From: Dehalococcoidia bacterium
GTDB taxonomy: Bacteria > Chloroflexota > Dehalococcoidia > Lucifugimonadales > UBA2962
NCBI GenBank assembly: GCA_965207145.1
Contig: OZ242262.1
Location: forward strand, 1,352,827 to 1,416,826
Direction: 5' to 3'
DNA: 64,000 nt
The stretch's first letter is position 1, and each line of letters starts with the position of its first letter. This document shows, piece after piece, positions 16,590 to 61,504 of this stretch. A program made the position numbers and the translations under genes. The notes beneath the pieces were generated by a model. It had not been told where the DNA came from, ran no database searches, and worked only from the letters and a program-made list of their open reading frames with translations.

Positions 16590-16770
16590 GCCGCCGGCAC
16601 CCGGCAGCCACCTGCCTCCCGCTTGGCGCGCCTTCTATTAGGAGCCGAGATAGACCTGAGGGCAGACTCTCTTGGGAGCGTAGCCGCCGAGAGCCGTGGT
16701 AGACGACGCTGGTACTACCTGATCTCTGTTGGTACAGAGTAATCGTCCTCCGACCCGGGGGTTTCACGGA

Positions 16771-17526: not shown

Positions 17527-17699
17527 GCCGCCGGCACCCGGCAGCCACCTGCCTCCGGCTTTTTCTATAGGGGCCGATACAGGCCTGGATGGCAGGCTCT
17601 CTTGGGAGCGCAGCCGCCGAGAGCCGTGGTAGACGACGCTGATATTATCTGATTGCTGTTGGTATAGAGTAATCGTCCTCTGGCCGGGAGGTTAACGGA

Positions 17700-30957: not shown

Positions 30958-31523
30958 GCTGAGCTTCCCCTCAAGTTATGGTCGGACTCTAATGTTAGCT
31001 TTGCCGAAACGAGGGTTCAGGGGGAATGGAATGATGCTGAGACCCGGCATACGCCGGGAGAGTTAGCCTCCGTCCCGAGGCAGGTCCGGAGCGGTGGCCC
31101 ATGGGTGGAGGCCTGTAGGGTTAGGGATCGCCGAGAGTACCCTGTGTGGCATACTGGCAACCCTGAGTGGGATTGTTTTGTACCCGGTATCAGTATCGGC
31201 CCTTAGGCGGCGGACCTGAGCGTGAACATTTCCTAGAGTAGTTTGCCGAAGCGTGGGCGCTGAGGGATGACGCGCTCTTTGCCCGGAACAGTCTACTTGC
31301 GCAGAATTGTTCGACGGGGGAACGTCACCCTAGCAGGGACTTGCCCGGAGAGTTCGACACTGGAACAGGGATCCGCATGCCGTTGACAGAGTAAGATCTG
31401 GGCACTACAAGTGGCCCACGCCGGACAACCCTTGCGCTGGAATTCGCAACGTTCTTGTCAATTTGCAGCGGACGATCACAAGGTGGCCTGTCGAGACGGT
31501 CTGAGCAAAGAGAGGGTTATTCA

Positions 31524-33047
31524 ATGAAGAAGGGGACTTTTCTCATCGTGGCTTTTCTCGCTGTGGGATTGGCACTGTCCGCGTGCGGTGGCGATGAGGC
31601 CGCAGATCCCACGGCAACCGCTGTAACTGCCGAACCGACGCCCACGGCGACCGCTGTGCCTGCAGAGCCGACTGCCGCTCCCGCCGAGCCGACGGCCACC
31701 GCAACCGCCACGCCCGCTGTTTCTGAACCGGCCGTAGAGCCGGAGGCTTCCCAAGAGCAGCTGCTCGCCGAATATGCGAATGAGCACGCAGGCGGACCAG
31801 GTGCGATCTTTGTGGGAGATCCCATGCAGTTAATCGGTCCGCCCCCCCACGAGGGCATGATGTTCGAGGCACCCCAGGAGCAATACATGCAGGGGTCCAT
31901 GGCGGCGCTGTTCGGTGTTCCAGAGTTGGGAATCGCCAGCCACATGTTCATCTTTACCAGCGACTACTATCGAGGCCTCATAGAAAAGGCCAAGCTGACC
32001 AACCCGACCGAACTGACCTCAAGCGGGCAGAGCATTGAGATTCAACACGTCTGCATCAGCCGCACCCTGCCTACCTGTCTGCTGATCCAGGCCTACTGGG
32101 CACCCAACGTAGAAAGGCGCACCAACGGCCAGGTAAAGCTCTCAGTGGTTTCGTTCGCCGAGTTGGGGCTGGCAGGTCCCGATACCCTGGATCAAGTGCG
32201 AGACGGCACCCTGGACATGGTGAACATATACGCCGGCTACGTAGCGGGCGCGCTCCCGGCCCTGGAGGTACAGGCCCTCTGGGGCATGGCCAGCGACTGG
32301 GAAAGCTCCTACATGATACTGACGGATGTCGCGCCGGAGGTCGACCAGATCATACTCGATGCCACAGGCGGCAGCCCTGTCCTGAATCGCAACTGGTTTG
32401 CCGGTGCCGACCAGTGGTTCTTCGGGAACAGGCCCCTGCAGAGCGTCGAGGCTTTCGAGGGCCTCAAGATAAGGACTCACGGCGGCGCCATAACCGACTT
32501 CATCACCGGTATGGGAGCCGAGGGGGTGTTCTTAGGGTTCGGCGAACTGTACCAGGCGCTGGAACTCGACCAAATAGACGCAGCCGCCACGGGGATACTG
32601 CTGGCAATCCCGGACCGCCTGTATGAAGTGTCCAGCTACATGGCCGGTCCCGTGATCGGCTTCGGGTACACCAACAACGTAATCAATAAGGACGTCTGGA
32701 ACAAGATTCCGGAAGACCTGCAACAGATCCTCATCGAGGAAGGTGCAAAGGCCGAGCTTGAGGCACTTCGCTTGGCCCCGTTCCAGAACGTAGTCGCGCT
32801 GCAAATTCATCAGCAACTCGGAGTTCAGCCGGTGCCATTCTCCGAAGAGATAATCCGCCACATCCGGACCGTGGTGTTTCCCGAGCATGTCTTCCCCGGA
32901 TGGCTACGTCGCTTGGGATACCCGGAACGGAACCAGGAGATCGTCGACATCGCCAATGAGAAGATCAGTCCCTACACGGGTCTCTGGGTGGAACCGGACG
33001 GGTCGATCAGGCAGGTTCCCGTTACCAAGGGGCCGTTCGCCCCGTGA
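31524..33047 (+). CDS. TRAP transporter substrate-binding lipoprotein (DctP family) with a long N-terminal extension
   Basis: AGAGAGGG lies upstream of the ATG at 31524. Lipobox 'LALSAC', then an Ala/Thr/Pro/Glu tether of about 70 aa. The DctP-like core includes 'GLKIRTHGG', 'ELYQALELDQIDAA' and 'VINKDVWNKIPEDLQ'. Confidence 0.8.
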   Translation: MKKGTFLIVAFLAVGLALSACGGDEAADPTATAVTAEPTPTATAVPAEPTAAPAEPTATATATPAVSEPAVEPEASQEQLLAEYANEHAGGPGAIFVGDPMQLIGPPPHEGMMFEAPQEQYMQGSMAALFGVPELGIASHMFIFTSDYYRGLIEKAKLTNPTELTSSGQSIEIQHVCISRTLPTCLLIQAYWAPNVERRTNGQVKLSVVSFAELGLAGPDTLDQVRDGTLDMVNIYAGYVAGALPALEVQALWGMASDWESSYMILTDVAPEVDQIILDATGGSPVLNRNWFAGADQWFFGNRPLQSVEAFEGLKIRTHGGAITDFITGMGAEGVFLGFGELYQALELDQIDAAATGILLAIPDRLYEVSSYMAGPVIGFGYTNNVINKDVWNKIPEDLQQILIEEGAKAELEALRLAPFQNVVALQIHQQLGVQPVPFSEEIIRHIRTVVFPEHVFPGWLRRLGYPERNQEIVDIANEKISPYTGLWVEPDGSIRQVPVTKGPFAP

Positions 33048-33317
33048 TCGCCTCTCTCGCGGCGGGCGACTGAAGGAAGTTCAGCCTGCGGGTGGAACTC
33101 TGGCCGCATACCCGACCCCAGGCCAGGAACGCTCCCTGCTGGCCGTTCTGGGTTCGTGCGCCGGCTGGGCGGTCCTTATGGTTGTGAGACCGGCTTGGAA
33201 GATCTCGAACGTGAGTAGCGTTTTGGCAGCTTGCCGCCACTCTCCGGTGACTCCCACGTGACGGGAGCTCTGGCAAGATTGGCCCGGCGCCGCGAATCTT
33301 TGACTTAGGAAGACGCG

Positions 33318-33911
33318 GTGGCCGCCAATAGCCTGTCAACCTACGAGGGGCAGAGGACGCCGGCTCTCCATCTGTTGCTGGCTTTCCGCGCCATCGGCCA
33401 AAAGGCCGACAGGCTGTACCTGCTTCTCGGATACATTTGCGGCCTTGAACTGCTGCTGCTCGGTTTCTTCATCACCTACCAGGTGGTAGCTCGAAATCTC
33501 GACTGGCCTAGGGCCCCGGGAACCGATGTCATCAGCGGCTACGTCCTGGCGATGGCAGTCACCTGGGCGCTGGCCTACTCACTTCGTTCGGACTCTCACG
33601 TGAGAATCGACGTGCTCTTGCCACGGATGAGCCCGCCGGTCCGGGCCGTGGCGGACCTGGTGGCGCTTGGAGGGTTGGCCTTCTTGGGCTACGTGACCGC
33701 CTGGGAGATGTGGGAGAGCGTGATCAGCGATTACCAGCGAGACGTTTACAACAACGTCTATCCGCGGACTCCTTTGTTCATACCAAAGGCCGTGGTTGCT
33801 GTTGGATTCACAATGCTGGTGATCACCGCTCTGCAGATGATGCTCTCGATGATCGCCGAGAGGCTGCTCCCCCGTTTGCACGAGCTCATGGGGGGACAGA
33901 AGGTCGAATGA
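33318..33911 (+). CDS. TRAP transporter small permease (DctQ-like)
   Basis: Four hydrophobic helices. 'HVRIDVL' is the typical DctQ motif. It lies between the DctP and DctM genes. GTG start as called. Confidence 0.7.
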   Translation: MAANSLSTYEGQRTPALHLLLAFRAIGQKADRLYLLLGYICGLELLLLGFFITYQVVARNLDWPRAPGTDVISGYVLAMAVTWALAYSLRSDSHVRIDVLLPRMSPPVRAVADLVALGGLAFLGYVTAWEMWESVISDYQRDVYNNVYPRTPLFIPKAVVAVGFTMLVITALQMMLSMIAERLLPRLHELMGGQKVE

Positions 33912-33940
33912 TCCCTCAGACGGTCTTCGGAGGCTAGGCC

Positions 33941-35434
33941 TTGGTTCTCGGCGTGGCATTCGGGTTGATGGGCGCGTTCTTCATGGCGGGCATGTACGTT
34001 GCCGCCGCCCTGGGGTGCCTGTCCTTGATCATCATGTACTTCTTCTCCGACGCTCCCCTCTGGAACATCATGGCCAACAAGGCCTGGGAGGGTACGACAG
34101 GCTTCATTCTGGTGGCCGTGCCCCTGTTCATTCTCATGGGTGAGTTGATGAACCGCTCCGGCATTGGGGAGCGTATGTATGCCGTCATCGCCCGCTGGTT
34201 GTGGTTCCTCCCGGGCGGGCTCATCCACACCAACGTCGTCTCCTGTGCCATCTTTTCCGCCTGCTCGGGCTCGAGTGTGGCCACGTCCGCCACGATAAGC
34301 CGGGCGTCGCTTCCATCCTTTAGGCGGCGGGGCTATTCAGAGCGCATGGTCCTGGGCTCACTTGCCGCCGGTGGAACGCTGGGCATCCTGATTCCTCCCA
34401 GCATAGGCCTGATCCTGTACGGGGTGCTGGCGGAGGAATCGATCGGACGCCTCTACATGGCGGGCCTTCTGCCCGGGCTCATCCTTGCGACGTCATTCGT
34501 TGTGATGATAGCCGTCCTGGCTTTGGCCTGGCGCGATATGGCCCCGAGAGAGCGGGGCGACAGCTTTGGCAACTGGGAGGGATGGAAGGTCAGGTTGCTT
34601 GGAGCCATCCACCTTCTGCCAATACTGGCCCTAATCTTCATCGTCCTGGGATTCATCTATCTCGGAATCGCATCGCCAAGCGAAGCCGCCGCCTTCGGAG
34701 TCTCTGGCGCATTTGCCCTAGCGATTCTGCTGAATTCGGGCGAGCTACTTACGCCGTTGCTGGGCTTCCTGCTCAGGCGGACCGGCCTCATCCATCTGCT
34801 CACGCACGACGCACAGCAGGCGCTGCGCTCGGCCCACATGCCATCTCGCAAGACTGCCCGGGTTGTCTTGAGGCGAAACCTGCGGATTGTCCAGCAGTCG
34901 CTCATTTCCACGGCTCGAACCACCGGCATGATCTTCCTGATCCTTCTCGCCGCATTCACCTTGAGCTTCGCATTCGCCCGGCTTGGAATCTCCGGGGAGA
35001 TCGCCGAGGCCATTTCGAGCCTGAACCTGAGTGATTGGCAGTTGGTCCTGGCCCTGATCGTGTTCTACCTTCTCTTGGGCACTTTCATGGAGAGTTTCGC
35101 CATGATGGTCACCACCGTGCCCATCCTGATCCCGACACTGCAGCAGGCAGGAGTCGACCTTGTCTGGTTCGGCGTCATAATGGTGCTCCTGGTGGAGGCG
35201 GCACTGATCAGTCCACCTGAAGGGATCAACCTGTACGTCCTTCACGGCGTTCGTCAGGATGTCGACCGCGAAGAGGCCGAACAGTCGAATCAGACGGTGC
35301 GGCAGCGCACGATTTCGGACGTGTGGATAGGCGTATTGCCATTCATGGCGTGCATGGCCGTCGTAATTGCCCTCGTACTGGCATTCCCGCAGATTGCGCT
35401 GTGGCTGCCGAACCTGATCTACGGTGCCAGGTAA
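33941..35434 (+). CDS. TRAP transporter large permease (DctM-like)
   Basis: 'PLFILMGELMNRSGIGERMY', 'SGSSVATSATI' and 'LIPPSIGLILYG' are canonical DctM motifs. The protein is about 60-70 aa longer than usual because of a basic insert near 34740-34930. Confidence 0.85.
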   Translation: MVLGVAFGLMGAFFMAGMYVAAALGCLSLIIMYFFSDAPLWNIMANKAWEGTTGFILVAVPLFILMGELMNRSGIGERMYAVIARWLWFLPGGLIHTNVVSCAIFSACSGSSVATSATISRASLPSFRRRGYSERMVLGSLAAGGTLGILIPPSIGLILYGVLAEESIGRLYMAGLLPGLILATSFVVMIAVLALAWRDMAPRERGDSFGNWEGWKVRLLGAIHLLPILALIFIVLGFIYLGIASPSEAAAFGVSGAFALAILLNSGELLTPLLGFLLRRTGLIHLLTHDAQQALRSAHMPSRKTARVVLRRNLRIVQQSLISTARTTGMIFLILLAAFTLSFAFARLGISGEIAEAISSLNLSDWQLVLALIVFYLLLGTFMESFAMMVTTVPILIPTLQQAGVDLVWFGVIMVLLVEAALISPPEGINLYVLHGVRQDVDREEAEQSNQTVRQRTISDVWIGVLPFMACMAVVIALVLAFPQIALWLPNLIYGAR

Positions 35435-35515
35435 ATGAGAGGCATGGAGAGTACAGGCTAGACGGGGCAAGGATCTGAGGGGGCAGGCTCTTGCAAGGGA
35501 TCTTTACGCGGAGCG

Positions 35516-36277
35516 GTGAACTTGGACAGGAAGGCCGAGGCTAGACGGCTGGTGGAAGCGATTCGTGAGTCCCTTAGAGCTTCAGCGGACCCTGAGCGCG
35601 CCAAGAACGAGAAGCGGTACCTTAAGAGCGACCTTCGATTCATCGGAGCCAGTGTTCCCTCGATCCGCAAGGCCGTTAGGCAGGTCGTGGGACGCGGCTC
35701 ATTTTCGGAGAGAACGACACTACTTGCGTTCGTAGAGGCCTGCTGGGATACGGACGTTCATGAGCTACGCGTGGCAGGAGTCGTCGCCCTTCAACAGTCG
35801 ACGCATCTTCTGGAAGCGAGAGACATTGTGCTTGTCGAAGCACTTATTCGCAGGTCAAAGTCCTGGGCCTATGTCGACCCTCTGTCCATCTATATGGCGG
35901 GTTCGCTGGTGGAGCGGTTCCCCGAGCTTGGCTCAACGCTGAACCTATGGGCACAGGATCCGGACTTCTGGGTGCGTCGTTCTGCCATCCTCGCACTGTT
36001 GGGACCGTTGCGACGCGGGGAAGGAGATTTCGACCGATTCAGCCGATACGCAGATGCGATGCTCGGGGAAAAGGAATTCTTCATCCGTAAGGCCATCGGA
36101 TGGACGCTGCGAGAGGTGAGCAAAACGCGACCCTGCCTTGTCTACAGCTGGATGGCGCCTAGGACTGGCCGAATCTCGGGTGTCGCGATGCGCGAAGCGG
36201 TGAAATACCTGCCCAGGGATCAGCGCGACGGGCTCATGGCAGCGTACAGAGGGAGACGGTCGGCGCTCGGGGGATGA
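35516..36277 (+). CDS. DNA alkylation repair protein (AlkC/AlkD-like HEAT-repeat family)
   Basis: 'AKNEKRYLKSDLRFIGASVPSIRK' and 'EFFIRKAIGWTLREVSK' are hallmark motifs of this family. GTG start. Confidence 0.75.
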   Translation: MNLDRKAEARRLVEAIRESLRASADPERAKNEKRYLKSDLRFIGASVPSIRKAVRQVVGRGSFSERTTLLAFVEACWDTDVHELRVAGVVALQQSTHLLEARDIVLVEALIRRSKSWAYVDPLSIYMAGSLVERFPELGSTLNLWAQDPDFWVRRSAILALLGPLRRGEGDFDRFSRYADAMLGEKEFFIRKAIGWTLREVSKTRPCLVYSWMAPRTGRISGVAMREAVKYLPRDQRDGLMAAYRGRRSALGG

Positions 36278-36617
36278 GCCTTAGCGATCTATCTTGTCCT
36301 GGCGAGCGTGGATGGGTAGAGGCTGTGCAGCCTGATACCTGTACCTTGCTTTGGCGGAAGGGATTCGGCGCGTAACTCTTTCGGAGTAGCCGGTTCGAAC
36401 GAGTCCACACGTGTGTTCAGTGCCTCAAACCACGAGGCGCTGCTGGGGTGGGAGTGTTTTCGGTAGCCTTCCCGTGGTAGGCGTTCACCCCGGCAGGAAG
36501 ACCTTCGAACTCCACGACACAGTCTCCATCGGTACCGTCAACGGGTTGTGGTTGTAAGCTTCACACACGGCGCTGGCACGCCGCAGATCAGGCTCATCAA
36601 CACAACGGAGAACCGAT

Positions 36618-37571
36618 ATGGCCCTCTACCTCGCCGAAGAAGATGTCGCCGCCGTATTGACCATGGACATCGCGCTCGAGGAGGTGGAGAAGGGCTTCGT
36701 CCACCTCGCCGAAGGCAAGGCCTTCAACTTCCCGCGCAACCGCCTGCCCAACGGCGACGGCGCCTTCAACTTCATGGCCGCGACCGCCCCCGAGCTTGGC
36801 GTTATGGGCATGAAGACCTATGACTTCGTCGCCAACAGTTCGCGCTTCTACGTCCAGCTCTACGACACATCCACTGCGGAGCTCATCGCCCTCATAGAGG
36901 CCAACGGCATGGGACAGGTCCGCACCGGCGCCGCCAGCGGCATAGCGACCAAGTATATGGCCCGGGCCGACGCGTCCACGGTAGGCATGATCGGATCGGG
37001 CTACCAGGCCAGCACGCAGCTTGAGGCCGTCTCCAGAGTCAGGGACATAACCAGCGCTAGGATCTACTCTCGCAACCGGGAGAACCGGGAGCGTTTCGCC
37101 TCGATGATGGAGCGGCGCCTCGGCATCGAGGTCCGCGCTGTCACCGGCGGCCGTGAGTGCGTCGAAGGTGTCGATATAGTCAACGTCATCACCACGGCTC
37201 CTACTCCCGTCCTGCTGGGCGAATGGCTCGGCGCCGGCGCGCACGTGAACGCGGCCGGGAACAATCACTGGATGAAGCAGGAGGTCGACTCAGAGGTCGT
37301 CCGTCGCGCCAGTGTGATCGTTGCCGACGACGTCGAAGAGGCGAAGATCGAGTGCGGCGACCTCGTCGAGCCAATCGACCGCGGCGTCCTCACGTGGGAC
37401 CGCGTGCGCAACCTGTCCGACGTGGTTACGGGCCAGGTCGCGGGCCGCCGGTCAGACGACGATATCACCCTGTTCGAGTCCCAGGGAGTCGCCATCGAGG
37501 ACGTCGCCGTCGGCATTCGCGTCTACCGCATGGCGCAAGAGCGCGGACTGGGCCGGGTGATGCCCTTCTGA
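36618..37571 (+). CDS. Ornithine cyclodeaminase/mu-crystallin family protein
   Basis: 317 aa. Shows 'VGMIGSGYQASTQLEA' (Rossmann), 'VITTAPTPVL..WL..GAHVNAAG' and 'ITLFESQGVAIEDVAV'. Confidence 0.85.
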   Translation: MALYLAEEDVAAVLTMDIALEEVEKGFVHLAEGKAFNFPRNRLPNGDGAFNFMAATAPELGVMGMKTYDFVANSSRFYVQLYDTSTAELIALIEANGMGQVRTGAASGIATKYMARADASTVGMIGSGYQASTQLEAVSRVRDITSARIYSRNRENRERFASMMERRLGIEVRAVTGGRECVEGVDIVNVITTAPTPVLLGEWLGAGAHVNAAGNNHWMKQEVDSEVVRRASVIVADDVEEAKIECGDLVEPIDRGVLTWDRVRNLSDVVTGQVAGRRSDDDITLFESQGVAIEDVAVGIRVYRMAQERGLGRVMPF

Positions 37572-38030
37572 GCTACGCGCCCCGGCCAGAGACCGCCCGG
37601 GGACCTTACCGGCCGCACCCTAACGTTGGCTCGAGTGCGGGACGTCTCAATGCTAGTAGGTCAGGCCCTCCGCCGTTAACGAACCGTGTGATCGATATGA
37701 AAAGGGGTGTGGAAATGCACCTTCCACAGTCGCCAATGTGGGCTACGGGTGACTGTGGGTGGAAACTCTCAATGTGTCGTGTCACTTTGGCTCAAAGCGC
37801 CACGGACCCGATGGTGAACTGGTGGAGAGCAGATGATGTACTGGTGATGGGTCCGGGGACCCCGGACTCGTGCGCTTTGGCAGACCTCCTTGGATTGCGA
37901 GTTCAGCGATCCAGCCGACTAACTCTCCAGTTGGACCGAAATCCGGAGTGCAGGTAATCTCCTATCCCAAAGCCACAACCCTGTCGTCAGTGTGTATGTT
38001 AGGAGGGACTGAACAGAGTGGACCCTTCTC

Positions 38031-38738
38031 ATGGCATCAAGTAAAGGAGGTTCAAACATGGGCACAATAGCGGTGAACCGGCTAGCGGGTCTGTCCCTTA
38101 TCTTCGGCCCGGTAATCGCCTTCGTCTTCTTTCTCGTAGAGCCGGGCGGGCTAATCATAGATAGCGCCGAGGTGTCAGACGCCGTTGGCTCCATAACGGC
38201 CAAGGGCGCAAACGCCGCGCTGACCAATGTAACCAACATCGCGATAATCCTTGGCCTGGCCCTGATCCTCTCGGGCCTCTATGCGCTGATGCGGAACGTA
38301 ACCTTGCAGGGCAACGGCAAGGCGCTTGCTCAGATGGGCTTTTTCATGATCTTCGTCGGACTGACCGGCTGGATCCTGGCCGGCGGAATGGACTTCATTC
38401 TGGCCGATGCCCAAACCAGCGACCAGATTGCGGGAAGCGTTCCCGTCTACTACGCCGGCTCCGCCCTCTTCTACGCCGGTGGGATTACGCTTGGGTTTGG
38501 CGGCTCCATTTTCGCATTGGGCCTCTCCACGAGAGAGGACTTCAACCGGATAATCTCCCTGCTGGCTGCACTTGTCAGTCTGGCCGTTATGGCCTTTTTC
38601 ATCGTAGCCATACTCCACAACGATGGCCGTGACACCTTTATCACCCTGGCGCGCGGTTTTTACGTGCTGCTGGTCATCTGGTATGGATATCTGGGCTTCG
38701 GACTGATGAACCGGCCCGACCCCGACCTTTGGCGATAG
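38031..38738 (+). CDS. Hypothetical integral membrane protein
   Basis: About 6 hydrophobic helices. No family recognised. An alternative ATG lies at 38058. Confidence 0.5.
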   Translation: MASSKGGSNMGTIAVNRLAGLSLIFGPVIAFVFFLVEPGGLIIDSAEVSDAVGSITAKGANAALTNVTNIAIILGLALILSGLYALMRNVTLQGNGKALAQMGFFMIFVGLTGWILAGGMDFILADAQTSDQIAGSVPVYYAGSALFYAGGITLGFGGSIFALGLSTREDFNRIISLLAALVSLAVMAFFIVAILHNDGRDTFITLARGFYVLLVIWYGYLGFGLMNRPDPDLWR

Positions 38739-39240
38739 ACAGAGGCTAGGACTTGGCTGCGGCCGTCCTGAGGTCGACGGACGGTGGCATAACACAAGAC
38801 CACCTGCCAAACGGAGTTCGGAGTTAGGTCATCCCCGGTGGCTGGAGCCCGGTGCGCACGCATGCGAAGAGGCTGTGCCGCAAGCCGGGCGACGATGCGG
38901 CCAACCCCGGCCACACCTGGCATCTATCTAGCCCTCAGCGCCATGGCCATGGCGGTGAATTAACGAAGAGCAATGCATTGGCCCGCAAGTGATGCCAGAC
39001 GCCGTGCTCTTTTCGCCAGATTCGCGTGCATCGGCACATTGTCCTATGCGGCAAGTACGTCGTCCGGCGCACCGACCTTCGATATGGACAGGAGTTCGTG
39101 GAGCAGACCAATGGTCGGACTGGCTAACCCGGCGACTGGACCGAAAAAGAGGGAAGCCAATTGACCCGCTGCAAAATCCGGCCTTACATTGAGAGCCGGG
39201 AAGTTACTCAACCCGCCTGAATCGGAGGTGATGCTGAGCG

Positions 39241-39996
39241 ATGGGAAACCCGGTGGTGCACTTCGAAATTGCCGGCCCGGATGGGCCTGCCTTGCGGCAG
39301 TTCTATCGCGATTTGTTCGGATGGAAGGTTGAAGTGCTGGGCGAGGAGATGCACAACTACGGTCTGGTCTCTGCAAACGAGGGAGGCATCGGTGGCGGCC
39401 TGTTTCCCACAGCTGAGGGTACGCCGGCACGTAGCTACGTCACCTTCTATGTACAGGTTGACGACCTTGAAACGGCGCTGAACAAGGCGGCCGGCATGGG
39501 TGGGAAGGCCATCGTGCCACCTGTGGAGATCGCGCCTGGCATGGGCTCGATCGCAATGTTCGAGGACCCGGCCGGAAACACCGTGGGTCTGTATGCGCTA
39601 CCGCCGGAATGGGACGGACAGATGCCGCCCAAGGGGAACGGTCCGCCGGTGGTGCACTTCGAATTGGGAGGCGGCGACGCGGCGAAGCTCGCCGAGTTCT
39701 ATGCCGGAATGTTCGACTGGCAAATCCACCTTCATGAGGAGACCAACTACCGCCTTGTCCAGCAGGAAACGGGAGGGATTGGCGGGGGTATCTTCGAGCA
39801 CGTAGAGGGTATGCCGCCCAACAATCCTTCCGTCGCGGTAATGGTTAGCGACCTGCAGGCCTACCTAGACAAGGCTGTGGATCTCGGCGGAAGTGCGCTT
39901 ATGGCTCCCACCGAGATTCCCGGCGGTTTCGGCTCGATGGCCATATTCTTCGACATCGCTGGCAACCGCATTTCACTCTTTAGGTCCCCGGAGTAG
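39241..39996 (+). CDS. VOC (glyoxalase-like) family protein with two tandem domains
   Basis: 'PVVHFEIAGPDG..LRQFYRDLFGWKV' and 'PVVHFELGGGDA..LAEFYAGMFDWQI'. Each half ends 'GSIAMFEDPAGNTVGLY' or 'GSMAIFFDIAGNRISLF'. Confidence 0.8.
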   Translation: MGNPVVHFEIAGPDGPALRQFYRDLFGWKVEVLGEEMHNYGLVSANEGGIGGGLFPTAEGTPARSYVTFYVQVDDLETALNKAAGMGGKAIVPPVEIAPGMGSIAMFEDPAGNTVGLYALPPEWDGQMPPKGNGPPVVHFELGGGDAAKLAEFYAGMFDWQIHLHEETNYRLVQQETGGIGGGIFEHVEGMPPNNPSVAVMVSDLQAYLDKAVDLGGSALMAPTEIPGGFGSMAIFFDIAGNRISLFRSPE

Positions 39997-40335
39997 AGAC
40001 CGCGAGACCGGCCGGACTGGCCCACAAAGCGGCTCATCCGAGACCTCAGCGTCGCCTTCGTCCAGGCCGGTGTTGACGGCATCCTCGGCCATTTCCCCGG
40101 CGACATCCACTGCTATGGGAGCAGCGAGCTAATAGGAGCCTTGCGTGAAGTCCCGCCGCAGTTTGGTTCCGCCTCGCAGCCGGCGGGTTATCTTCCGGGA
40201 AATATCAAGGGCGACAGCATCAGGTGTGAAAGTCAACTGAGCATTTGAGGAAGCCAACGGGTAGACACATGCTGGGCCGAGCAAGTAGCGGTGGCTATAG
40301 GCCAGAAGGGTGTACGCTGCAGCCTTCTCGTCCCG

Positions 40336-40734
40336 CTACTCCCTCGCGTCAAGCCGGGCCAGGTTGCCACCCCAGGCCAGGATTCGCTCATTGCCAGTCA
40401 CCAGCCGGTGTCCGGCCTGGGCCGTGGCAACGATAATTCGGTCGGCGGGGTCGGCGTGAAAGTCGGGCAAGGCGTTGGCACGGATTCCAATTTCTCCATC
40501 GACGGGGATCTCGGCGAGCCCCTGCCGGAGCAGTTCTCGACGCCACAACCCGACGTCCTCCGGAAAGTCCAATCGGTCTTTGCTCCTAAGCATTGCCACT
40601 TCCCAAAACGTCATGGCGGACACGGCGAACTCCTCGTCGCGAAGCGCATTATCGAGAGCCCGTCTTGCGACTGCTCCCAGGCGGGCGTCACCGGTCCGCA
40701 ACCAGATCAGCGCATGGGTGTCTGCGAGGATCAT
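40336..40734 (-). CDS. vapC: Type II toxin VapC (PIN domain)
   Basis: 'MILADTHALIWL' carries the N-terminal acidic residue. 'TFWEVAML' and 'DPADRIIVATA' are PIN signatures. Its start overlaps the antitoxin stop by 4 nt. Confidence 0.8.
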   Translation of the reverse strand: MILADTHALIWLRTGDARLGAVARRALDNALRDEEFAVSAMTFWEVAMLRSKDRLDFPEDVGLWRRELLRQGLAEIPVDGEIGIRANALPDFHADPADRIIVATAQAGHRLVTGNERILAWGGNLARLDARE

Positions 40735-40973
40735 GGGTTCAGCACCCTGTCTGGATTGGTCTCCGCTTCCCATTCGACGTCAATGGGACTGATGATGTCG
40801 CCGACGATCGTGATTCGGCCTCGGTCCGCGCCAAAGAACGATTTGGGGCGTTGCCGGTAGGGCACGAGACGGGAGATAGGCTTCCCGTTCTTGGTGATGA
40901 CGATCTCGCCTCCGCTTTCGGCTACCTCGTCCATGAGCTGAAGGCACTTGGCCTTGAACTCCGACGCCTTCAT
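40731..40973 (-). CDS. Type II antitoxin (Phd/YefM-type, prevent-host-death family)
   Basis: 'MKASEFKAKCLQLMDEVAESGGEIVITKNGKPISRLVP' is the canonical Phd/YefM N-terminus. An alternative start lies 13 codons upstream at 41012. Confidence 0.75.
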   Translation of the reverse strand: MKASEFKAKCLQLMDEVAESGGEIVITKNGKPISRLVPYRQRPKSFFGADRGRITIVGDIISPIDVEWEAETNPDRVLNP

Positions 40974-41079
40974 GGTCCGAGTGCCGCCTGATGTGTCGCT
41001 GTTTGTATCCATGACGCTACTTTCCCAGACCGGACTTGTGTCGATCATACCATGGTCACGACCATAGTCATATTCTGTC

Positions 41080-41490
41080 TTAGCTATCCCACGTACCGCA
41101 GCTTCGCTCACCGTCCGTGTCAAAACCCGGCGGAGGGAGGCAAGACGCAGGGTCAAGACTGACTGGAGCAGGGTAGGAACCACCATCAAGCTGGCCAGCG
41201 AACCAGTTCTGCCCAAATGGTGCGCGACAGCGCAAACCGTCCAAAAAAGCAACGTGGAAATTTGCTACGATGAGGCGGCCGGAGCCCGAATCCCGCAGCC
41301 TGGGGGTCTGCAGGATCATGGTAGCTCCGGTGACTGCCAGCGCGGCAAATGTCAACCATGAAAGATAATCTTCAGACTGGCCGGATGCCCGCACCACCAT
41401 CGGCGCCAGCATGACGAGGCCGATCGTGTTGAGTATGAATATCTGAAAGGCTGCGGAAATCGCCAGTAGCGGCGCGCACTTCTCAACTGG
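41080..41490 (-). pseudogene. Fragment of a nucleobase:cation symporter-2 (xanthine/uracil permease)-like gene
   Basis: The minus frame reads 'LLAISAAFQIFILNTIGLVMLAPMVVRASGQSEDYLSWLTFAALAVTGATMILQT', resembling NCS2 TM1-TM2. There is a stop 11 codons upstream and no plausible start. The sequence degenerates after about 90 codons. Confidence 0.4.
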
Positions 41491-41650
41491 TTAGTACCGG
41501 ATTTCGTGTCGCCCCTTGGTTTTTCGGAACATAGGTTGATGTCTAGTCGCACCACCCTTTGCTACATTGCTAATATCCAACAATCGACAGATCACTAGTA
41601 CATTCCAGAGAGGGTTAGTTTTGCGAACCGAGCGAGAGAGCAAAAAGCGG

Positions 41651-43450
41651 ATGAATCGGACGGGATTGGAGTGCCAACGAGCACCAGCGGGCGTGAGAGC
41701 ACTGCTTTTGCTTCTGGTCGCGGCTTCGATTGCGGTCTTTGCAGTTGCCTGCGGCGACGACCCTTCCCCAGCGCCGGAGCCCGTTGCCACCGCGGAGCCC
41801 GTTGCCACCGCGGAGCCCGTTGCCACCGCGGAGCCCGTTGCCACTACCGCGCCGACTGCAACCCCTATGCCGACCGCCGCGCCGGCTCCAACCCCGGAAC
41901 CCGAGCCCGCAAATGAAGACGACGCCCTGACGCGCGCCCACGTGGAGAAGGCTATCGCCTACTACGAGGCCAACGGCCGGGACGCGACGATCGAATACTA
42001 CAAGAGCGAAGAGAGCATTGAGGGAGGCCGGTATCTCTTCATAATCAGCGAGGATGAAGGCATCCTGCTGGCAATGCCGTTCTATCATCATTTCCTGGGA
42101 AGCAAGCTCGAATCCGCCGCGTTATTGTTGGGAGCCGCCACAGAAGATGGCGCCTGGTATGAGGGACAGGGGATATATGTGGTGGAGACGGCCACCGGCA
42201 CCTCAACTAGGCAGGGTCCAACGCGGAACTACCTTGTCCTGCGCGATGGCCTCATCTTCGTATCCGTCCACTCCACCCTCCAGGAGAACGTGGCGGAAGC
42301 CACCAGGGATTATGTGAGCCGCGCAATAGCCCTATACGAGAGCGAGGGGCTTGAAGCGACGATCGCCCACTACAACAGCCCGGACAGCCTGGAGGGAAGC
42401 TTCTACCTGTTCCTGATTGGCGCGGATGATAACTACCTGGCCCATCCCATTTTCCCGCACCTGATAGGGACCGACATCAAGGGCGTGATTGGTTCCGACG
42501 GGCAGGAACTGGGCAAGGAGATAGCCCTTGCAACCGAGGAAGGCGTCTGGGTGGAGTACCTGTGGCCCAATCCGATCACGCGGGTGGAGGAGGCCAAGAC
42601 CACCTGGGCCATCCGCCACGACGGCCTGATCTTTGCGTCCGGCTACTACTCCGTGGGCGAATCGCCGGAGCCACCCGCCTGGCAGGACGCGGACCCGCGC
42701 GAGTACACCGTGGAGTACGTGGAGCGGGCGATAGAGCGTTACGAGCGGGACGGCCTGGAATCCATGCTCAACTACTACAACAGCGTCGCCAGCTTTGAGG
42801 GCGAGTGGTATCTCTTTGCCACCGACGAGAACGACATCTATCACGTACACCCTCTGCTGCCCCACCTGATAGGCACGGACATCAAGGACGTGGTGGGTTC
42901 CGACGGCTTCGAGTTGGGTAAAGAACTGGCCAAGGCCGGGGAGGGAGAAGGCGTCTGGGTGGAATACCTGTGGCCGCACCCGGTAACGCTCAAGGAAGTG
43001 CCAAAGGTTGGGTACGCGGTGCGTCAGGACGGGATGATCTTCGCATCGGGCTACTATCCTGGCGTCACGGACCCGGCGGCCTACACCCAGGCCTACGTCC
43101 AGAGCGCTATGGACTACTATGACAGCCAGGGCCTGGAGGCCACGGTTGCGCACTACAACAGCCCGGAGAGCATAGACGGCTCTTACTGGCTGATGATGGT
43201 TGATCCCCAGGGCGTGATAATCGTTTCGGGCGCGGAGCAAGCGCTGGTTGGAGCGGATGCCAGCGTGTTCCAGGGGATTTTGGCCGGAGAGCTAATTGGC
43301 GAATCACTTCTCAGCGCCACGGAGGGAGGCCACTGGTTCGATTACTTGTGGCCCAACCCCAGGACGGCGGGGCAATTGACGGTGTACCTCTGGATAATCC
43401 GCCACGACGGATACGTCTTTTCTTCCGCCTACTACGTTGAGGGCGAGTAG
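41651..43450 (+). CDS. Lipoprotein composed of four tandem Cache-like (sCache_2-type) domains
   Basis: Lipobox 'VFAVAC' and a (EPVATA)n tether. Four units of about 125-135 aa follow, each with a helix 'Y(V/T)xxAIxxYExxG.EATIAHYNS', then 'G..YLF', then 'HP..PHLIGTDIK.V.GSDG.ELGKE', then 'GVWVEYLWP.P', then 'DG.IFASGYY'. Confidence 0.7.
   Translation: MNRTGLECQRAPAGVRALLLLLVAASIAVFAVACGDDPSPAPEPVATAEPVATAEPVATAEPVATTAPTATPMPTAAPAPTPEPEPANEDDALTRAHVEKAIAYYEANGRDATIEYYKSEESIEGGRYLFIISEDEGILLAMPFYHHFLGSKLESAALLLGAATEDGAWYEGQGIYVVETATGTSTRQGPTRNYLVLRDGLIFVSVHSTLQENVAEATRDYVSRAIALYESEGLEATIAHYNSPDSLEGSFYLFLIGADDNYLAHPIFPHLIGTDIKGVIGSDGQELGKEIALATEEGVWVEYLWPNPITRVEEAKTTWAIRHDGLIFASGYYSVGESPEPPAWQDADPREYTVEYVERAIERYERDGLESMLNYYNSVASFEGEWYLFATDENDIYHVHPLLPHLIGTDIKDVVGSDGFELGKELAKAGEGEGVWVEYLWPHPVTLKEVPKVGYAVRQDGMIFASGYYPGVTDPAAYTQAYVQSAMDYYDSQGLEATVAHYNSPESIDGSYWLMMVDPQGVIIVSGAEQALVGADASVFQGILAGELIGESLLSATEGGHWFDYLWPNPRTAGQLTVYLWIIRHDGYVFSSAYYVEGE
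41777..41848 (+). repeat. 18-bp perfect tandem repeat (gagcccgttgccaccgcg), 3 full copies plus 1 variant copy
   Basis: Read directly from the sequence. Units start at 41777, 41795, 41813 and 41831 and encode EPVATA repeats. Confidence 0.95.
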
Positions 43451-43478
43451 GACGCGCCGCCGCCCACCGTCCGACGGC

Positions 43479-43535
43479 GCGCTGACGCGCGCCTACGTCG
43501 GGAAGGCTATGGCCTACCAAGACGCCAACGGTTAA
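43479..43535 (+). pseudogene. Truncated relic of a further Cache-like repeat or paralog (ALTRAYVGKAMAYQDANG*)
   Basis: About 47 of 57 nt are identical to 41924-41980, the start of domain 1 (ALTRAHVEKAIAYYEANGR). It is in a different frame from the preceding gene and ends in TAA. Confidence 0.5.
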
Positions 43536-43873
43536 AACGCCATCGTTGCGTTCTCCGAAGCTCGCTTAAGGCTTGTAGAACGCAACGGTGACGTCTTGGC
43601 CAAATCCGACACGATTCTACCGGTGTAGGGGCCCGCTTCCCTGATGGTTACCGTTCCCAATGGGTTGACCCGCCTTGAACGGACGGTAATAGGCGGCCGT
43701 CTTCTCCACCGGTGAGCGGCCATGGCCCACTGAGGATGCGCTCTTGGTGGGCTCGATGCTGGCGTGGTCCTTAGTGTGCGGGCCAAGGCGTACCGAATTG
43801 CGAGCTTTTCGCTGGGAGTTGGTGCTGTAGAGTTGGGTGGAGAAGTGTCCCGCTCAGAGTCTTCCGCCGCTCA

Positions 43874-45553
43874 TCAGGACTCTATCAGGCCCTCCTGTGG
43901 CATGGTCCAGGGCAGGGTGTAGAACGGCGCGAATTGAGGGGCGGGCGGCACCGGCATGTCTCCAAAGGGCACGTCGATAATCACCGGCGCCTGCCGCTCC
44001 AGCGCCAGGGGAATCAATCTCTCCAACTCCATCGGGTCGTCTGCTCTCATGCCGACAGCACCGAACGACTCAGCGAACCTGACGAAATCCGGGTTGTGCA
44101 GGTCAGTCCCATAGGCTCCGTCAAACGCGTCGTCCAGGTCGCGCGCCACGTTGCCGAAGGAGTCGTTGTTGAAGACCACGGTCACCAAGTTGATGCCGTA
44201 CCGGACGGCCGTGGAGAGCTCTGACGAGTTGAACATGAATCCACCGTCTCCGGTCATGCAGACAACGGGGCGGTCGGGGCATGCGACCTTTGCTCCCAGC
44301 GCCGTTGGGAAGGCGTAACCGAGATTGAACGAGTAGCCGGAGTCTATGTACGTCTTGGGGTGATTGACCTGCCAATGGGTCCGGGCATAGTAGCCGAACT
44401 GAGTAACGTCCCAAACTACGAAAGCGTCCTCAGGGACGCCCCGCCGTATTGCTTCCAGGACAGGGTACTGCGGCTCCTTGAGCCGAATGTCGTAGTAGGC
44501 TATCAGCCTGCGCGCAGCGCTTACCGCCTCGGCAGGCGACGGACGGTCTCCCGCTCCAGCCTCGATGAGATGGGGAAGCAGCGCCTCTATGGTCGCTCCG
44601 GCATCGCCGTGCAGGGCGATGGTGTTGGGATGATGCCTCGTAAGCTCGGTGTCGTCTATGTTGATGTTGACCAGCGTGGACGCCCCGCTGGCAGGATAGC
44701 CCAGCGAGAAGCGCGCGCCGATTCCTATCACCACGTCGGCAGACTGCATCACCCCGTAGAGCTGGTTCATCTCCTGTCTCTCGCCCCTGGGACTGAAGCA
44801 AGAGCCGTAGGACAGCGGATGTCTATCGGGGACGGCGCCCTTGCCCCCGCTGGAAGTGATGACGGGTATCTTCGTCGCCTCGGCCAGACCGATGAGCGCT
44901 GCTTCGGCGTCTGATCGCGCCACCCCGCCCCCCGCGTAAATCAGTGGCAGTCGAGACCTGGCGACAACCTGGGCCGCCTCCTTAAGTGCCTCCCTGCTCG
45001 GCACGATCCTAGAGACATGGACAGGACTCCGAAGTTCGACGACTTCCCGCTCCACTCCGACTTCGGGCGGTATCTCCAGAAGAGCTGGACGGGGACGGCC
45101 GGTGCGCATCTGCCGGAACGCTTCTGACACGGCATCCGGAACCTCGCGAGGTCTGGATGCCTGTCCCTGCCACTTGGTGACGGAGCGCACGGCACCTGCT
45201 TGGTCAGCAATTTCGTGCACGGCCCCACGGTTCTTGCCGATGGCTCCGCGGGGAATCTGGCCCGCGATGAGGAGTACGGGTGTGGAGCGGGAGTAGGCAT
45301 TGGTCAGGCCTGAGGCTGCGTTGTAGAGACCGACGCCCGGTACCACCAGCGCGACCCCCGGCTTGCCTGACGCACGGGCATAGCCGTCGGCCATGTACGT
45401 CGTCGCCTGTTCGTGCCGTGTGGTGATCATGCGGATGCCGGGCTCGTCCCGAATCGCGGCGACAATCCCGTAGATCTGTATGCCCGGTATGCCGAACACG
45501 ACCTGAGCGCCTTCGCCTACAAGCGATTTGGCAACTGCCTCACCTCCGCTCAA
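43874..45553 (-). CDS. Thiamine-diphosphate-dependent enzyme (acetolactate synthase large-subunit-like family)
   Basis: N-terminus 'GAQVVFGIPGIQIYGI...HEQATTYMADGYARASGKPGV' and the TPP motif 'GDGGFMFNSSELSTAVRYGINLVTVVFNN'. Confidence 0.85.
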   Translation of the reverse strand: MSGGEAVAKSLVGEGAQVVFGIPGIQIYGIVAAIRDEPGIRMITTRHEQATTYMADGYARASGKPGVALVVPGVGLYNAASGLTNAYSRSTPVLLIAGQIPRGAIGKNRGAVHEIADQAGAVRSVTKWQGQASRPREVPDAVSEAFRQMRTGRPRPALLEIPPEVGVEREVVELRSPVHVSRIVPSREALKEAAQVVARSRLPLIYAGGGVARSDAEAALIGLAEATKIPVITSSGGKGAVPDRHPLSYGSCFSPRGERQEMNQLYGVMQSADVVIGIGARFSLGYPASGASTLVNINIDDTELTRHHPNTIALHGDAGATIEALLPHLIEAGAGDRPSPAEAVSAARRLIAYYDIRLKEPQYPVLEAIRRGVPEDAFVVWDVTQFGYYARTHWQVNHPKTYIDSGYSFNLGYAFPTALGAKVACPDRPVVCMTGDGGFMFNSSELSTAVRYGINLVTVVFNNDSFGNVARDLDDAFDGAYGTDLHNPDFVRFAESFGAVGMRADDPMELERLIPLALERQAPVIIDVPFGDMPVPPAPQFAPFYTLPWTMPQEGLIES

Positions 45554-57963: not shown

Positions 57964-58421
57964 CTTCCCAGGGTGCCGGATCGTCCGACGTAGCCGTTTA
58001 CTGGCAACGGTGCTGACGGCATGGTACAGGTGACCGACCGACCTCGAGCCCGCTTGGTAAAGGGATCAGGTGCTCTCCGGCTGTTCGGGCGCAAACTGAA
58101 CTATCAGGGAAACTCGGCGCCCCGTCCGCCATTCACGTGGTCTTGTCCCAGTCTTCGCGCCAACTGCAGTTAGTCATGAGGCGTACTGATCCACCCATTA
58201 GGGGTTTCGGTCCATGACGCCTCAATCGACTTGAGACATGGTGGGCAGCTGAGTGGAAACAACGCGCTGGGATGCGCAACTGTAGCTGACCTCGTTGTAC
58301 ATCTGCCTGTAGTGAGCCGCTAACACCTTCACCGACGGCATCGTGTAGAAGATCTCCCTATCCAATATCTCGTCCCTGAGCTTGCCGCTGCCTCTCCAAT
58401 GCCATCGACTATCCCGCTTCG

Positions 58422-59186
58422 ATGGCGCCTCATCTCATATGCAGGGATCAACTCGAGGCCAGCGCCTTGGCCCACGCCGCAGATCGGCTTGGGATGATTG
58501 TAGGTCGACTTGATGACCAAGGCGTAGAGGCACGGATCAAGACCACCGTTGGACGACCCGCAGAGGAGATTCTCCGTGTTGCCGACGAAGAGGGATGTGG
58601 CCTAATAGCGATGTCGACCCATTGCAAGAGCGCTCTGGGCCGGACGATCATGGGCAGTGTGACCGACAGGGTGATCCACGCCTCGTCCGTGCCTGTACTG
58701 GCGATTGCGCCGGAGAAGGCAAAGGCGTATCAAGGGCGAGGGGCGGTTCCTCTAAAGACGATCATGCTTCCGCTGGACGGTTCGCAACTCGCCGAACAGG
58801 CGGTTCCCTACGTTGAGGCGCTGGCCAGATCTCTTTCGCTTGAGATTCTCTTGGTGAGGGTCGTGGATCTTGAGGGCCCGGTCTTCGCATACCCATCAAA
58901 CGAACAGTTGGCCAGGTTCAGAGACGATCGCAACGGCGAGGCGGCGAAGTATCTGGAGGGTGTGTCCCGGGACCTGAAGGGCAGAGGGCTTAGGGTTCGG
59001 ACCACGGTGCTGCTAGGATCGCCGGCACAGACCCTCTTGGACCTTACCCACCGGACGCCGAACGACCTGATCGCAATGACGACGCACGGGAGGTCCGGGT
59101 TGTCAAGGTGGCTTGCAGGGAGCGTGGCGGAGGCGTTGATACGCGCCTCCGGCGATCCGGTGCTGGTGGTGCGATCACGCTCGTGA
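58422..59186 (+). CDS. Universal stress protein with tandem UspA domains (first domain N-terminally short)
   Basis: Domain 2 is complete: 'IMLPLDGSQLAEQAVPYVEALA...GSPAQTLLDL...DLIAMTTHGRSGLSRWLAGSVAEALIRASGDPVLVV'. Domain 1 retains only 'GRPAEEILRVADEEGCGLIAMSTH..LGRTIMGSVTDRVIHASSVPVLAI'. Confidence 0.75.
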   Translation: MAPHLICRDQLEASALAHAADRLGMIVGRLDDQGVEARIKTTVGRPAEEILRVADEEGCGLIAMSTHCKSALGRTIMGSVTDRVIHASSVPVLAIAPEKAKAYQGRGAVPLKTIMLPLDGSQLAEQAVPYVEALARSLSLEILLVRVVDLEGPVFAYPSNEQLARFRDDRNGEAAKYLEGVSRDLKGRGLRVRTTVLLGSPAQTLLDLTHRTPNDLIAMTTHGRSGLSRWLAGSVAEALIRASGDPVLVVRSRS

Positions 59187-59230
59187 CGAGTGTCCATCCC
59201 CCATTTTGAGGGTGCGTGTCAATTGGTTCT

Positions 59231-59279
59231 ATCTTCAGTCACCGAAAGCCGAAAATGTGGGCTGTCGGTGACTGAAGGT
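59231..59279. terminator. Strong hairpin (13-bp perfect stem, 19-nt loop) at the core/island junction; possible usp terminator
   Basis: 'cttcagtcaccga' (59233-59245) pairs perfectly with 'tcggtgactgaag' (59265-59277). It lies 47 nt after the usp stop, with a 'cttttc' stretch shortly after. Confidence 0.4.
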
Positions 59280-59664
59280 AGAACTTTTCAATACGTCGTA
59301 TCATTTTAGGCTTGAGCGCCGTGCATGTGGTGGTAAACGTATCCAGAGCGATTCGTTGGCGCGTTCGTGATGCTGAAATCCGCTCAGTCTGTCTCCAGAA
59401 TCGTGTATTCCTACAGCTTTTCTCGAACGTTCCCTGACCTAGGTGCTCGTCAGACTGAGCGCCCCATGTCGCCCTCGCGGCCGCCTCCGTCAAATTCCCT
59501 GAGGGCACGGAATCGGATAAGTGATGCCGAACGTTGCGATCGGGACGTCAACCCCTGAGCATCCGATTTGACAGTCGATGCGTGGGTCGCTGATCAATTC
59601 TGAATCAGGATCGACAGAGTCGTCCTTGAGGTTCAATGCCGTTGCGGGACGGCTTGGTCCTCAT

Positions 59665-61290: not shown

Positions 61291-61504
61291 GGCGAACGAA
61301 TTCCAGGCAACGGCGGTCTCGAGCTGTTAGATGAGCAAAGTGCCGCTTACATGGTAAGACAGTTGTCGGACACCCTAGTGATTCGCAACCCTAATTCTGA
61401 CCTCGCTGGCTTCGCCGAGGAAATGACTTGGGCAGTTGACCCAAGCGTCTATATCTCATTTTCTGGGCAGGTGATATGACAAGCTAGGCGTTTGGAGACT
61501 CCGA

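Follow-up and report, generated by a model that had tools for sequence, protein, structure and literature searches.

A putative lipoprotein of four tandem Cache modules from Dehalococcoidia, and the gene pairing of its family with a tailed NCS2-fold permease

Prokaryotes use Cache domains more often than any other extracellular sensor. We have analyzed a stretch of 64,000 nucleotides from a Dehalococcoidia bacterium (Chloroflexota; GenBank assembly GCA_965207145.1, contig OZ242262.1, positions 1,352,827 to 1,416,826 of the forward strand; the whole stretch is called the window here), in which one gene encodes four tandem Cache modules behind a lipoprotein-type signal and a tether. Here, we show that two of the four modules keep an invariant ligand pocket and that, across its family, the gene of this four-Cache protein has a single widely conserved neighbour, the gene of an NCS2-fold permease with a C-terminal tail. 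The architecture, the fold, the conservation of the pockets, the gene pairing, the decay of the neighbouring genes and the purifying selection on the gene were all computed directly. We propose that the four-Cache protein is an external ligand-binding accessory subunit of the tailed permease or transducer, a tentative reading to which we give a probability of about 0.45.

Results

Architecture and fold of the four-Cache protein

The open reading frame (ORF) of the four-Cache gene runs uninterrupted through 599 codons from the ATG at 41651 to the stop codon at 43448-43450 (Table 1). When the whole protein was scanned against Pfam, sCache_2 (PF17200) matched three stretches with an E-value of 2.2e-22 (80.1 bits) and dCache_2 reached 5e-17; dCache_1 stayed below the cut-off. 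For separate scans we have divided the sequence into four units, each about 125-135 residues long, and the scores of the single modules, to be read against the sCache_2 gathering cut-off of 25 bits, are given in Table 1. A division into two dCache_2 units instead of four modules was considered but not adopted, since the score of sCache_2 is the higher one and a separate pair of N-terminal helices belongs to every module. The closest pair is that of modules 2 and 3, as an earlier sequence-only reading of this DNA had stated; their identity is 58%, and the remaining pairs share 26-42%, with module 1 at 33-35% to modules 2 and 3. The motifs which that reading quoted are all present in the translation (YVSRAIALYESEGLEAT, YLF, HPIFPHLIGTDIKGVIGSDG / HPLLPHLIGTDIKDVVGSDG, GVWVEYLWPNP/HP and, twice, IFASGYY).

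The best sequence matches in the PDB are 4K08, 5G4Y, 2QHK and 4EXO, all of them sCache_2 sensor domains of chemoreceptors; these matches support module 3 in particular. We have built an AlphaFold2 (AF2) model of the protein on 60 homologues. It has a mean predicted local distance difference test score (pLDDT) of 79 and a predicted template-modelling score (pTM) of 0.52, a value at which the packing of the modules against each other is not fixed by the model. Every module, module 1 included, is modelled as two helices, two strands, a short helix and three strands. Foldseek searches with single modules retrieved 4EXO and 2QHK with template-modelling scores (TM-scores) of 0.65-0.68 and root-mean-square deviations of 2.8-2.9 Å, and also 5G4Y, 4K08 and TlpB; the TM-scores against chemoreceptor sCache_2 domains span 0.58-0.68. 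The four sCache_2-type modules that the sequence-only reading had proposed are borne out by Pfam, by the PDB sequence matches (4k08, 5g4y, 2qhk, 4exo) and by Foldseek (TM-score 0.6-0.68).

The same reading had described a lipid anchor and tether with no transmembrane or output part behind it, and the sequence supports this description. The signal sequence ends in ...IAVFAVAC-GDD, a lipobox-type signal with an invariant cysteine at the +1 position: Cys34 is the sole invariant N-terminal residue among 60 relatives. The end of the signal fits the lipobox rule of PROSITE type. The four-Cache protein is probably exported and held at the membrane by a predicted lipid anchor at Cys34. Twin-arginine translocation was considered as the export route, since the pair RR is frequent in the N-terminal region of the family, and discarded: QR is all that is found in the window protein, and an FLK-type motif is absent. 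No second hydrophobic segment, transmembrane segment or output domain was found in the window protein, and nothing follows in frame after module 4. The canonical context of a Cache domain, outside the cell between two transmembrane helices and attached to a signalling output (Upadhyay et al. 2016, PMC4822843), is not present in this protein.

The Pro/Thr/Ala-rich tether contains an 18-bp tandem repeat at 41775-41844 (+ strand; 3.9 copies, 100% matches, Tandem Repeats Finder) that encodes AEPVAT. The relative P0004, which is 98% identical to the window protein, has two copies fewer, so the length of the tether is variable. The export format ...AC-G-D-D/PT-rich recurs in two other kinds of putative lipoprotein encoded in the window, DctP and pentapeptide-repeat proteins.

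A TTG codon at 41621, ten codons 5' of the ATG, is conserved and may be the true start, which would add the ten residues MRTERESKKR; the database calls of the near-identical relatives P0004 and P0005 begin there, and TTGCGAACCGAGC is found again upstream in members of the family. The conservation of the whole region before Cys34 (41621-41752, + strand; consensus ..RT........N.TG...RR.P.GV, beginning at the conserved TTG) is unusual for the n-region of a signal peptide.

Two conserved ligand pockets

The structure of PscD with propionate defines seven contact residues, Tyr90, Trp92, His103, Phe126, Tyr143, Trp145 and Lys156, of which Tyr90, His103, Tyr143 and Lys156 bond the carboxylate and Trp92, Trp145 and Phe126 pack round it (PMC5062169). 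We have transferred these positions through a HMMER alignment to 5G4Y and then through the alignment of the modules. In the order of the PscD residues, module 2 carries Y252, F254, H265, G288, Y303, W305 and K316, and module 3 carries Y387, F389, H400, G423, Y439, W441 and K452. Both modules thus read Y-F-H-G-Y-W-K, all fourteen positions are invariant in 60 of 60 relatives, and the carboxylate-bonding tetrad is kept in full (Y252/H265/Y303/K316 and Y387/H400/Y439/K452). Identity at all seven positions, which would indicate the C2/C3 specificity of carboxylate-sensing sCache_2 domains (PscD/McpP/Adeh_3718 type), was not found, as both modules have Phe in place of Trp92 and Gly in place of Phe126. 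These two exchanges suggest pockets that are probably roomier than that of PscD, and the ligand is likely to differ in size.

In modules 1 and 4 the pocket has neither the His nor the Lys, and its positions vary among relatives; in module 4 the His is replaced by S526 and the Lys by V578. The divergence of repeats 1 and 4 in the ligand pocket, which the sequence-only reading had noticed, is confirmed at these positions. Each four-module unit would contain two strictly conserved pockets of predicted carboxylate type and two degenerate flanking modules, which probably serve as scaffold or contact surfaces. From the retained tetrad, a carboxylate is the candidate ligand of modules 2 and 3.

Family and distribution

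An exact look-up of the window protein returned no match, and close relatives were used for its genomic context. A search among 5.8 billion proteins yielded 660 matches, most of them about 600 residues long. The Pfam families recorded for the relatives are almost all Cache models, the best database name is "cache domain-containing protein", and a signalling-output family is absent from all 120 relatives listed. With one genome searched per species, 265 loci encode a relative; the 80 of these that were retrieved are all from metagenome-assembled genomes (MAGs) of Dehalococcoidia/Chloroflexota, and so is every relative that has an organism name. Some come from bin series of two sponges, Aplysina aerophoba and Ircinia ramosa. 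The genes fall into three size groups of about 600, 1140 and 1650-1760 residues, corresponding to 4, 8 and 12 modules, and no output domain was found in relatives of any of the three sizes.

When 1.84 billion cluster representatives were searched exhaustively, 169 clusters matched at E <= 1e-30, and some of the proteins contain as many as 14 matched stretches. Scans of six distant members showed either sCache_2 stretches, numbering up to 13, or fusions with Laminin_G/immunoglobulin (Ig), vanadium-haloperoxidase-like or 5'-nucleotidase domains, and no signalling outputs. Such fusions and long arrays are found in P0270, P0320, P0387 and P0289, and one protein of 2099 residues contains 13 sCache_2 modules.

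A tailed NCS2-fold permease is the conserved neighbour

We have clustered all ORFs of 82 loci that encode the four-Cache protein or a relative. A permease of about 578 residues adjoins the Cache gene in 72 of the 82 and is the sole widely conserved neighbour. It lies immediately upstream and divergent in 66 loci, downstream and convergent in five, and downstream on the same strand in one; ten loci have no adjoining permease. Neither a sigma factor nor a STAS protein, a kinase or an ATP-binding cassette (ABC) system is a shared neighbour, the next-best cluster being present in at most 15 of the 82 loci. The intergenic regions between permease and Cache gene of 54 loci were searched for shared k-mers; no operator-like motif was found, and only the conserved TTG start and the "RTE" codons emerged.

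The permease matches Xan_ur_permease with an E-value of 2e-25 (89.6 bits) over profile positions 4-382 of 389, and its sequence matches in the PDB are of the UapA/SLC23 type. The NAT signature [Q/E/P]-N-x-G-x-x-x-x-T-[R/K/G] is absent; the site reads A-T-V-V-Y-M-S-F-T-G. At the position of E356, the substrate-binding glutamate of UapA, 117 of 120 permeases have a conserved lysine, which fits an anionic substrate. By these sequence criteria the permease probably has the NCS2/NAT fold with a different class of substrate. Within the family the permease is 75-84% identical, compared with 55-60% for its Cache partner.

The last 139 residues of the permease form an unannotated cytoplasmic tail. A profile search with it returned only C-termini or fragments of permeases with uninformative names. 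An AF2 model of the tail (pLDDT 75, pTM 0.71) gave Foldseek matches of which the top 18 are all anti-sigma factors (UsfX, RsbW, SpoIIAB; E-values of 3e-8 to 6e-5, TM-scores of 0.6-0.8), a similarity to the Bergerat (GHKL) fold that was found on the single confident model. Membership in the HATPase_c_2 profile and the ATP-binding N and G1 boxes were not found; neither an N-box Asn nor DxGxG is visible in the alignment. In the model the tail looks like an anti-sigma-type fold, apparently in a non-kinase version. A paralogous class of permease, 38% identical and with the same tail, lies directly 3' of a gene for a large protein that has a signal peptide and leucine-rich repeats in two loci (L013:18137-22602 and L021:17187-22229, both on the minus strand), which hints that permeases of the tailed type pair with different extracellular repeat proteins.

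Decay and selection at the window locus

At the window locus the permease is reduced to a stub, in which codon 14 is an in-frame stop and the frame shifts near residue 96, and the same stub is present in locus L004. A VapBC-type toxin-antitoxin pair (Pfam PIN, 1.9e-11; PhdYeFM_antitox, 6.9e-8) sits exactly in place of the remainder of the permease gene, which makes its insertion the likely cause of the truncation; VapBC probably cut the permease gene.

Sequence has also been lost at the other end of the four-Cache gene. The 8-module relatives P0001 and P0003 read on at "EDAPPPADSDDALTRAYVEKAIAYYEANGRDAT" where the window gene stops, and a frame directly behind the stop translates as "DGALTRAYVGKAMAYQDANG*", which matches their continuation "DDALTRAYVEKAIAYYEANGRDAT". 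In tblastn the N-terminal helix of a module is matched at 43470-43565, and DNA homology to the 8-module loci ends at about 43531-43555. From this remnant of a fifth module, the window gene is read as the surviving N-terminal half, four modules long, of an 8-module ancestor. The sequence-only reading had named a remnant of a longer sensor protein with an output domain as a finding that would overturn it. The gene is indeed a remnant, but the part that was lost consisted of Cache modules and not of an output domain. The truncated four-module form is common to several MAG lineages, and a collinear MAG chromosome, OZ220697.1, is 88-92% identical over 32282-43531 and shows the same decayed state; it carries an intact canonical Cache-permease pair 78 kb away.

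The window ORF is under purifying selection, with a ratio of nonsynonymous to synonymous substitutions (dN/dS, omega) of about 0.2. Against six orthologues dN/dS is 0.20-0.33, and among the six orphan orthologues omega is 0.12-0.32 at a dS of about 0.25. Over the four modules the median between orphan copies is 0.20, versus 0.18 for copies with an intact permease. A pseudogene reading of the ORF was rejected on these values.

Table 1. Features of the window locus and an example of the intact permease (window coordinates unless a locus is named; aa, amino acids)
Feature	Coordinates	Strand	Description
Coding sequence of the four-Cache putative lipoprotein	41651..43450	+	599 aa from ATG; ORF list, translation, Pfam sCache_2 80 bits
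Predicted signal peptide, lipobox-like end FAVAC	41651..41752	+	Cys34 codon 41750-41752
Pro/Thr/Ala/Glu-rich tether, residues 35-87	41753..41911	+	AF2 pLDDT <50 (disordered)
Module 1, residues 88-211	41912..42283	+	Degenerate Cache-like; no Pfam match alone; no His or Lys at pocket
Module 2, residues 212-347	42284..42691	+	sCache_2, 28.2 bits alone; pocket intact
Module 3, residues 348-473	42692..43069	+	sCache_2, 38.3 bits alone; pocket intact
Module 4, residues 474-599	43070..43447	+	Divergent sCache_2, 22.3 bits alone (below cut-off)
Decayed start of a fifth Cache module	43451..43555	+	Frameshifted, stop-bearing, in another frame, right after the stop of the coding sequence
Permease pseudogene stub, residues 1-172 of 578	41010..41532	-	tblastn with L002 permease: 73% and 47% identity, two frames
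VapBC-type toxin-antitoxin pair	40336..40973	-	PIN toxin 40336-40773; Phd/YefM antitoxin about 40731-40973
Example of permease with tail	L002:7962-9698	-	Same in 70+ other loci

Other features of the window

The genes of a tripartite ATP-independent periplasmic (TRAP) transporter lie at 31455-35434 (+ strand), and their DctP has a lipobox and a Pro/Thr/Ala/Glu-rich tether inside an N-terminal extension of about 190 residues before the DctP domain. At 15837-18452 (+ strand) there are three tandem ORFs of about 250-265 residues, the first of which has a lipobox signal resembling the one in the Cache protein and consists of pentapeptide repeats; of the second and third only the signal and tether were matched in tblastn. 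An Rfam scan of 40000-44500 gave no match, and a promoter and terminator scan at the locus performed no better than on shuffled sequence. The G+C content falls from about 0.60-0.66 to 0.54-0.57 across 58001-64000, at the right end of the window.

Discussion

Chemoreceptors provide the nearest characterized homologues of the four-Cache protein, namely the sCache_2 sensor domains of PscD (5G4Y/5G4Z), Adeh_3718 (4K08), the Vibrio domains 4EXO and 2QHK, and TlpB (3UB6). They have the same fold and belong to the same Pfam family, and the tetrad of Tyr, His, Tyr and Lys is shared with modules 2 and 3 only, not with modules 1 and 4. Unlike the chemoreceptors, the four-Cache protein has no two flanking transmembrane helices, no HAMP and no MCP domain, and its four tandem modules stand behind a lipobox and tether. 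That it is the remnant of such a classical chemoreceptor or kinase sensor, shorn of its transmembrane and output parts, is extremely improbable in spite of this homology, since what was lost downstream was more Cache modules, no signalling-output Pfam family occurs in the 120 listed relatives (of more than 600 found, 8- and 12-module forms included), and the next gene downstream encodes a thiamine pyrophosphate (TPP) enzyme on the opposite strand.

The Cache fold and its pocket are well known. In our literature searches we have found no description of stand-alone or tandem Cache lipoproteins, of binding proteins of Cache type or of fusions between a permease and an anti-sigma factor; the stand-alone lipoprotein architecture, the four-module unit with its multiples and the pairing with a permease that bears an anti-sigma-like tail are undescribed in the literature searched. 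The reference survey of the superfamily states that Cache domains occur only in proteins with an output domain (PMC4822843), and a family of free-standing Cache lipoproteins runs against this statement. A single family of the Cache clan, SMP_2, was noted to be without output domains (Upadhyay et al. 2016, PMC4822843). SMP_2 resembles the four-Cache family as a prokaryotic Cache-type domain without signalling output, but it belongs to another Pfam family and to the Proteobacteria, consists of one domain instead of a tandem array, and is not known to pair with a permease.

A similar design is found in eukaryotes. As is predicted for the window protein, the alpha2delta proteins and Cachd1 lie entirely outside the cell on a lipid anchor, contain four Cache domains and lack an output of their own, and alpha2delta is an accessory to a membrane transport protein, the calcium channel, and binds small amino-acid-like ligands. 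In the papers searched no other proteins are described by the phrase "four Cache domains", and a whole-chain Foldseek search with our model retrieved both, at low TM-scores of 0.1-0.15. They differ in being built from two dCache_1 units and a VWA domain and in their glycosylphosphatidylinositol (GPI) anchor, while the window protein has sCache_2/dCache_2 modules only and no VWA domain. We regard the likeness as an analogy of design rather than as evidence of orthology.

Several bacterial transport systems offer further parallels. The binding proteins DctP of TRAP transporters and TctC of tripartite tricarboxylate transporters (TTT) are, like the four-Cache protein in our reading, extracytoplasmic, oriented towards carboxylates and encoded beside a secondary transporter, and DctP is tethered as a lipoprotein in this very genome. 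However, they have the Venus-flytrap fold and not a Cache/PAS-like one, consist of a single unit instead of 4-12 modules, and share an operon with their transporter; the Cache genes are linked to a transporter membrane component in 72 of 82 family loci, mostly divergently, and at the window locus only to a pseudogene stub. On the side of the membrane protein, transporters of the SulP/SLC26 type join a core of UraA/NCS2 type to a C-terminal STAS domain, which is cytoplasmic and belongs to the proteins of partner switching. The permease described here has the same kind of core and a tail of putative partner-switching type as well, but its tail resembles the anti-sigma factor (SpoIIAB/RsbW/UsfX), whereas that of SulP/SLC26 is the antagonist, STAS. 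The co-sensor pairs DctA-DctB and DcuB-DcuS use a transporter in sensing, as is proposed here; in our case the Cache sensor is a separate lipoprotein and not part of a kinase.

From the gene pairing we infer a physical or functional coupling of Cache protein and permease, and possibly control of a sigma factor. The lipid-anchored array of four modules would capture or sense a ligand outside the cell, and the pockets of modules 2 and 3 would recognize a ligand of carboxylate type. The Cache protein would then feed or gate the divergently encoded permease of 578 residues, whose anti-sigma-like tail could supply the missing output in trans, so that the pair would form a transporter-sensor ("transceptor") module. 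The orphan copy in the window presumably works with a permease whose gene lies at another site of the genome. The guess of the sequence-only reading that the protein might be a binding protein for a transporter, or the partner of a separate membrane sensor, is the direction in which the gene context of the family points; the neighbouring permease of the window itself is dead.

Several observations weigh against a coupling of the two proteins. The pair is divergently transcribed and forms no operon, and to our knowledge no NCS2 transporter makes use of a binding protein. Four-module Cache subfamilies at 37-38% identity (P0298, P0300) have no adjoining permease and lie among catabolic genes. Paralogous permease classes at 30-38% identity bear the same tail without a Cache neighbour, which means that the tail works without a Cache partner; from the unpaired permeases and the unpaired Cache subfamilies together it follows that the pairing is specific to the subfamily of the window gene. 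The orphan copies are as constrained as the paired ones, which also fits a role independent of the permease. With regard to the tail, its residues have no sequence match in Pfam or in PDB profiles, a comparison in hhalign with an approximate SpoIIAB sequence yielded nothing, and only one of five AF2 models was confident, so that the fold call rests on that one. Finally, no conserved gene for a sigma factor or STAS protein was found near the Cache loci.

Part of this evidence would be explained if the four-Cache protein were an independent surface array that binds or retains acidic organic molecules or components of a host matrix, in the manner of a lectin or carbohydrate-binding module (CBM), and if its adjacency to the permease reflected shared regulation only. 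The distant relatives with Laminin_G/Ig, vanadium-haloperoxidase-like and 5'-nucleotidase fusions or with 13 modules in a row, all lacking signalling outputs, fit such a role, as do the subfamilies without a permease among catabolic genes, the constraint on the orphans and the members from sponge symbionts. What it leaves unexplained is that the permease alone is retained beside the gene across 52-90% sequence divergence, over which the other neighbours change. We consider an independent binder unlikely, though slightly the most probable of the rival readings.

Two further readings also tie the Cache protein to the permease, and we hold both to be rather improbable and to an equal degree. The first is a hitherto unrecognized two-gene system of signalling and transport, in which a lipid-anchored Cache array, as a prokaryotic counterpart of alpha2delta, would capture the ligand, the permease would relay this event and the tail would hold or release a sigma factor or STAS partner. 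The second, a rival to the accessory-subunit proposal, is pure uptake: the four-Cache lipoprotein would represent a new fold class of substrate-binding proteins that delivers a carboxylated substrate to an NCS2-type secondary transporter, in the way of DctP with TRAP or TctC with TTT, and the tail would be regulatory only, like STAS in SulP/SLC26. For uptake speak a format of lipobox and tether identical to that of the DctP protein in the window, the carboxylate-type pocket together with the permease lysine at the UapA-E356 site, a membrane partner that is far more conserved than the external one, and the adjacency in 72 of 82 loci. Yet Cache pockets bury small ligands and no mechanism of hand-over is known, no known binding protein resembles the arrays of 4, 8 or 12 modules, the genes are divergent, the permease lacks the canonical NAT substrate motif, and orphans persist under selection.

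A functionless relic, that is, a half-gene left behind after decay of its second half and of its permease, might be suspected from the stop at a point where relatives read on, from the decayed fifth module and from the permease pseudogene. It is nevertheless very unlikely, because the ORF is intact over 599 codons with an omega no higher than that of paired copies, all pocket residues are retained, and the truncated form is found in several MAG lineages.

Taken at its most general, the analysis reveals several hundred proteins in which Cache modules stand free of other domains, in arrays of 4, 8 or 12 on a predicted lipid tether. If the coupling to the permease is true, it would be the first NCS2 transporter assisted by a binding protein, or a new wiring of an extracellular sensor to transcription, and the pair would provide a bacterial model for Cache proteins of the alpha2delta type that serve membrane transport proteins. 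The family marks an uncharacterized uptake or sensing trait of the abundant uncultured Dehalococcoidia, sponge symbionts included.

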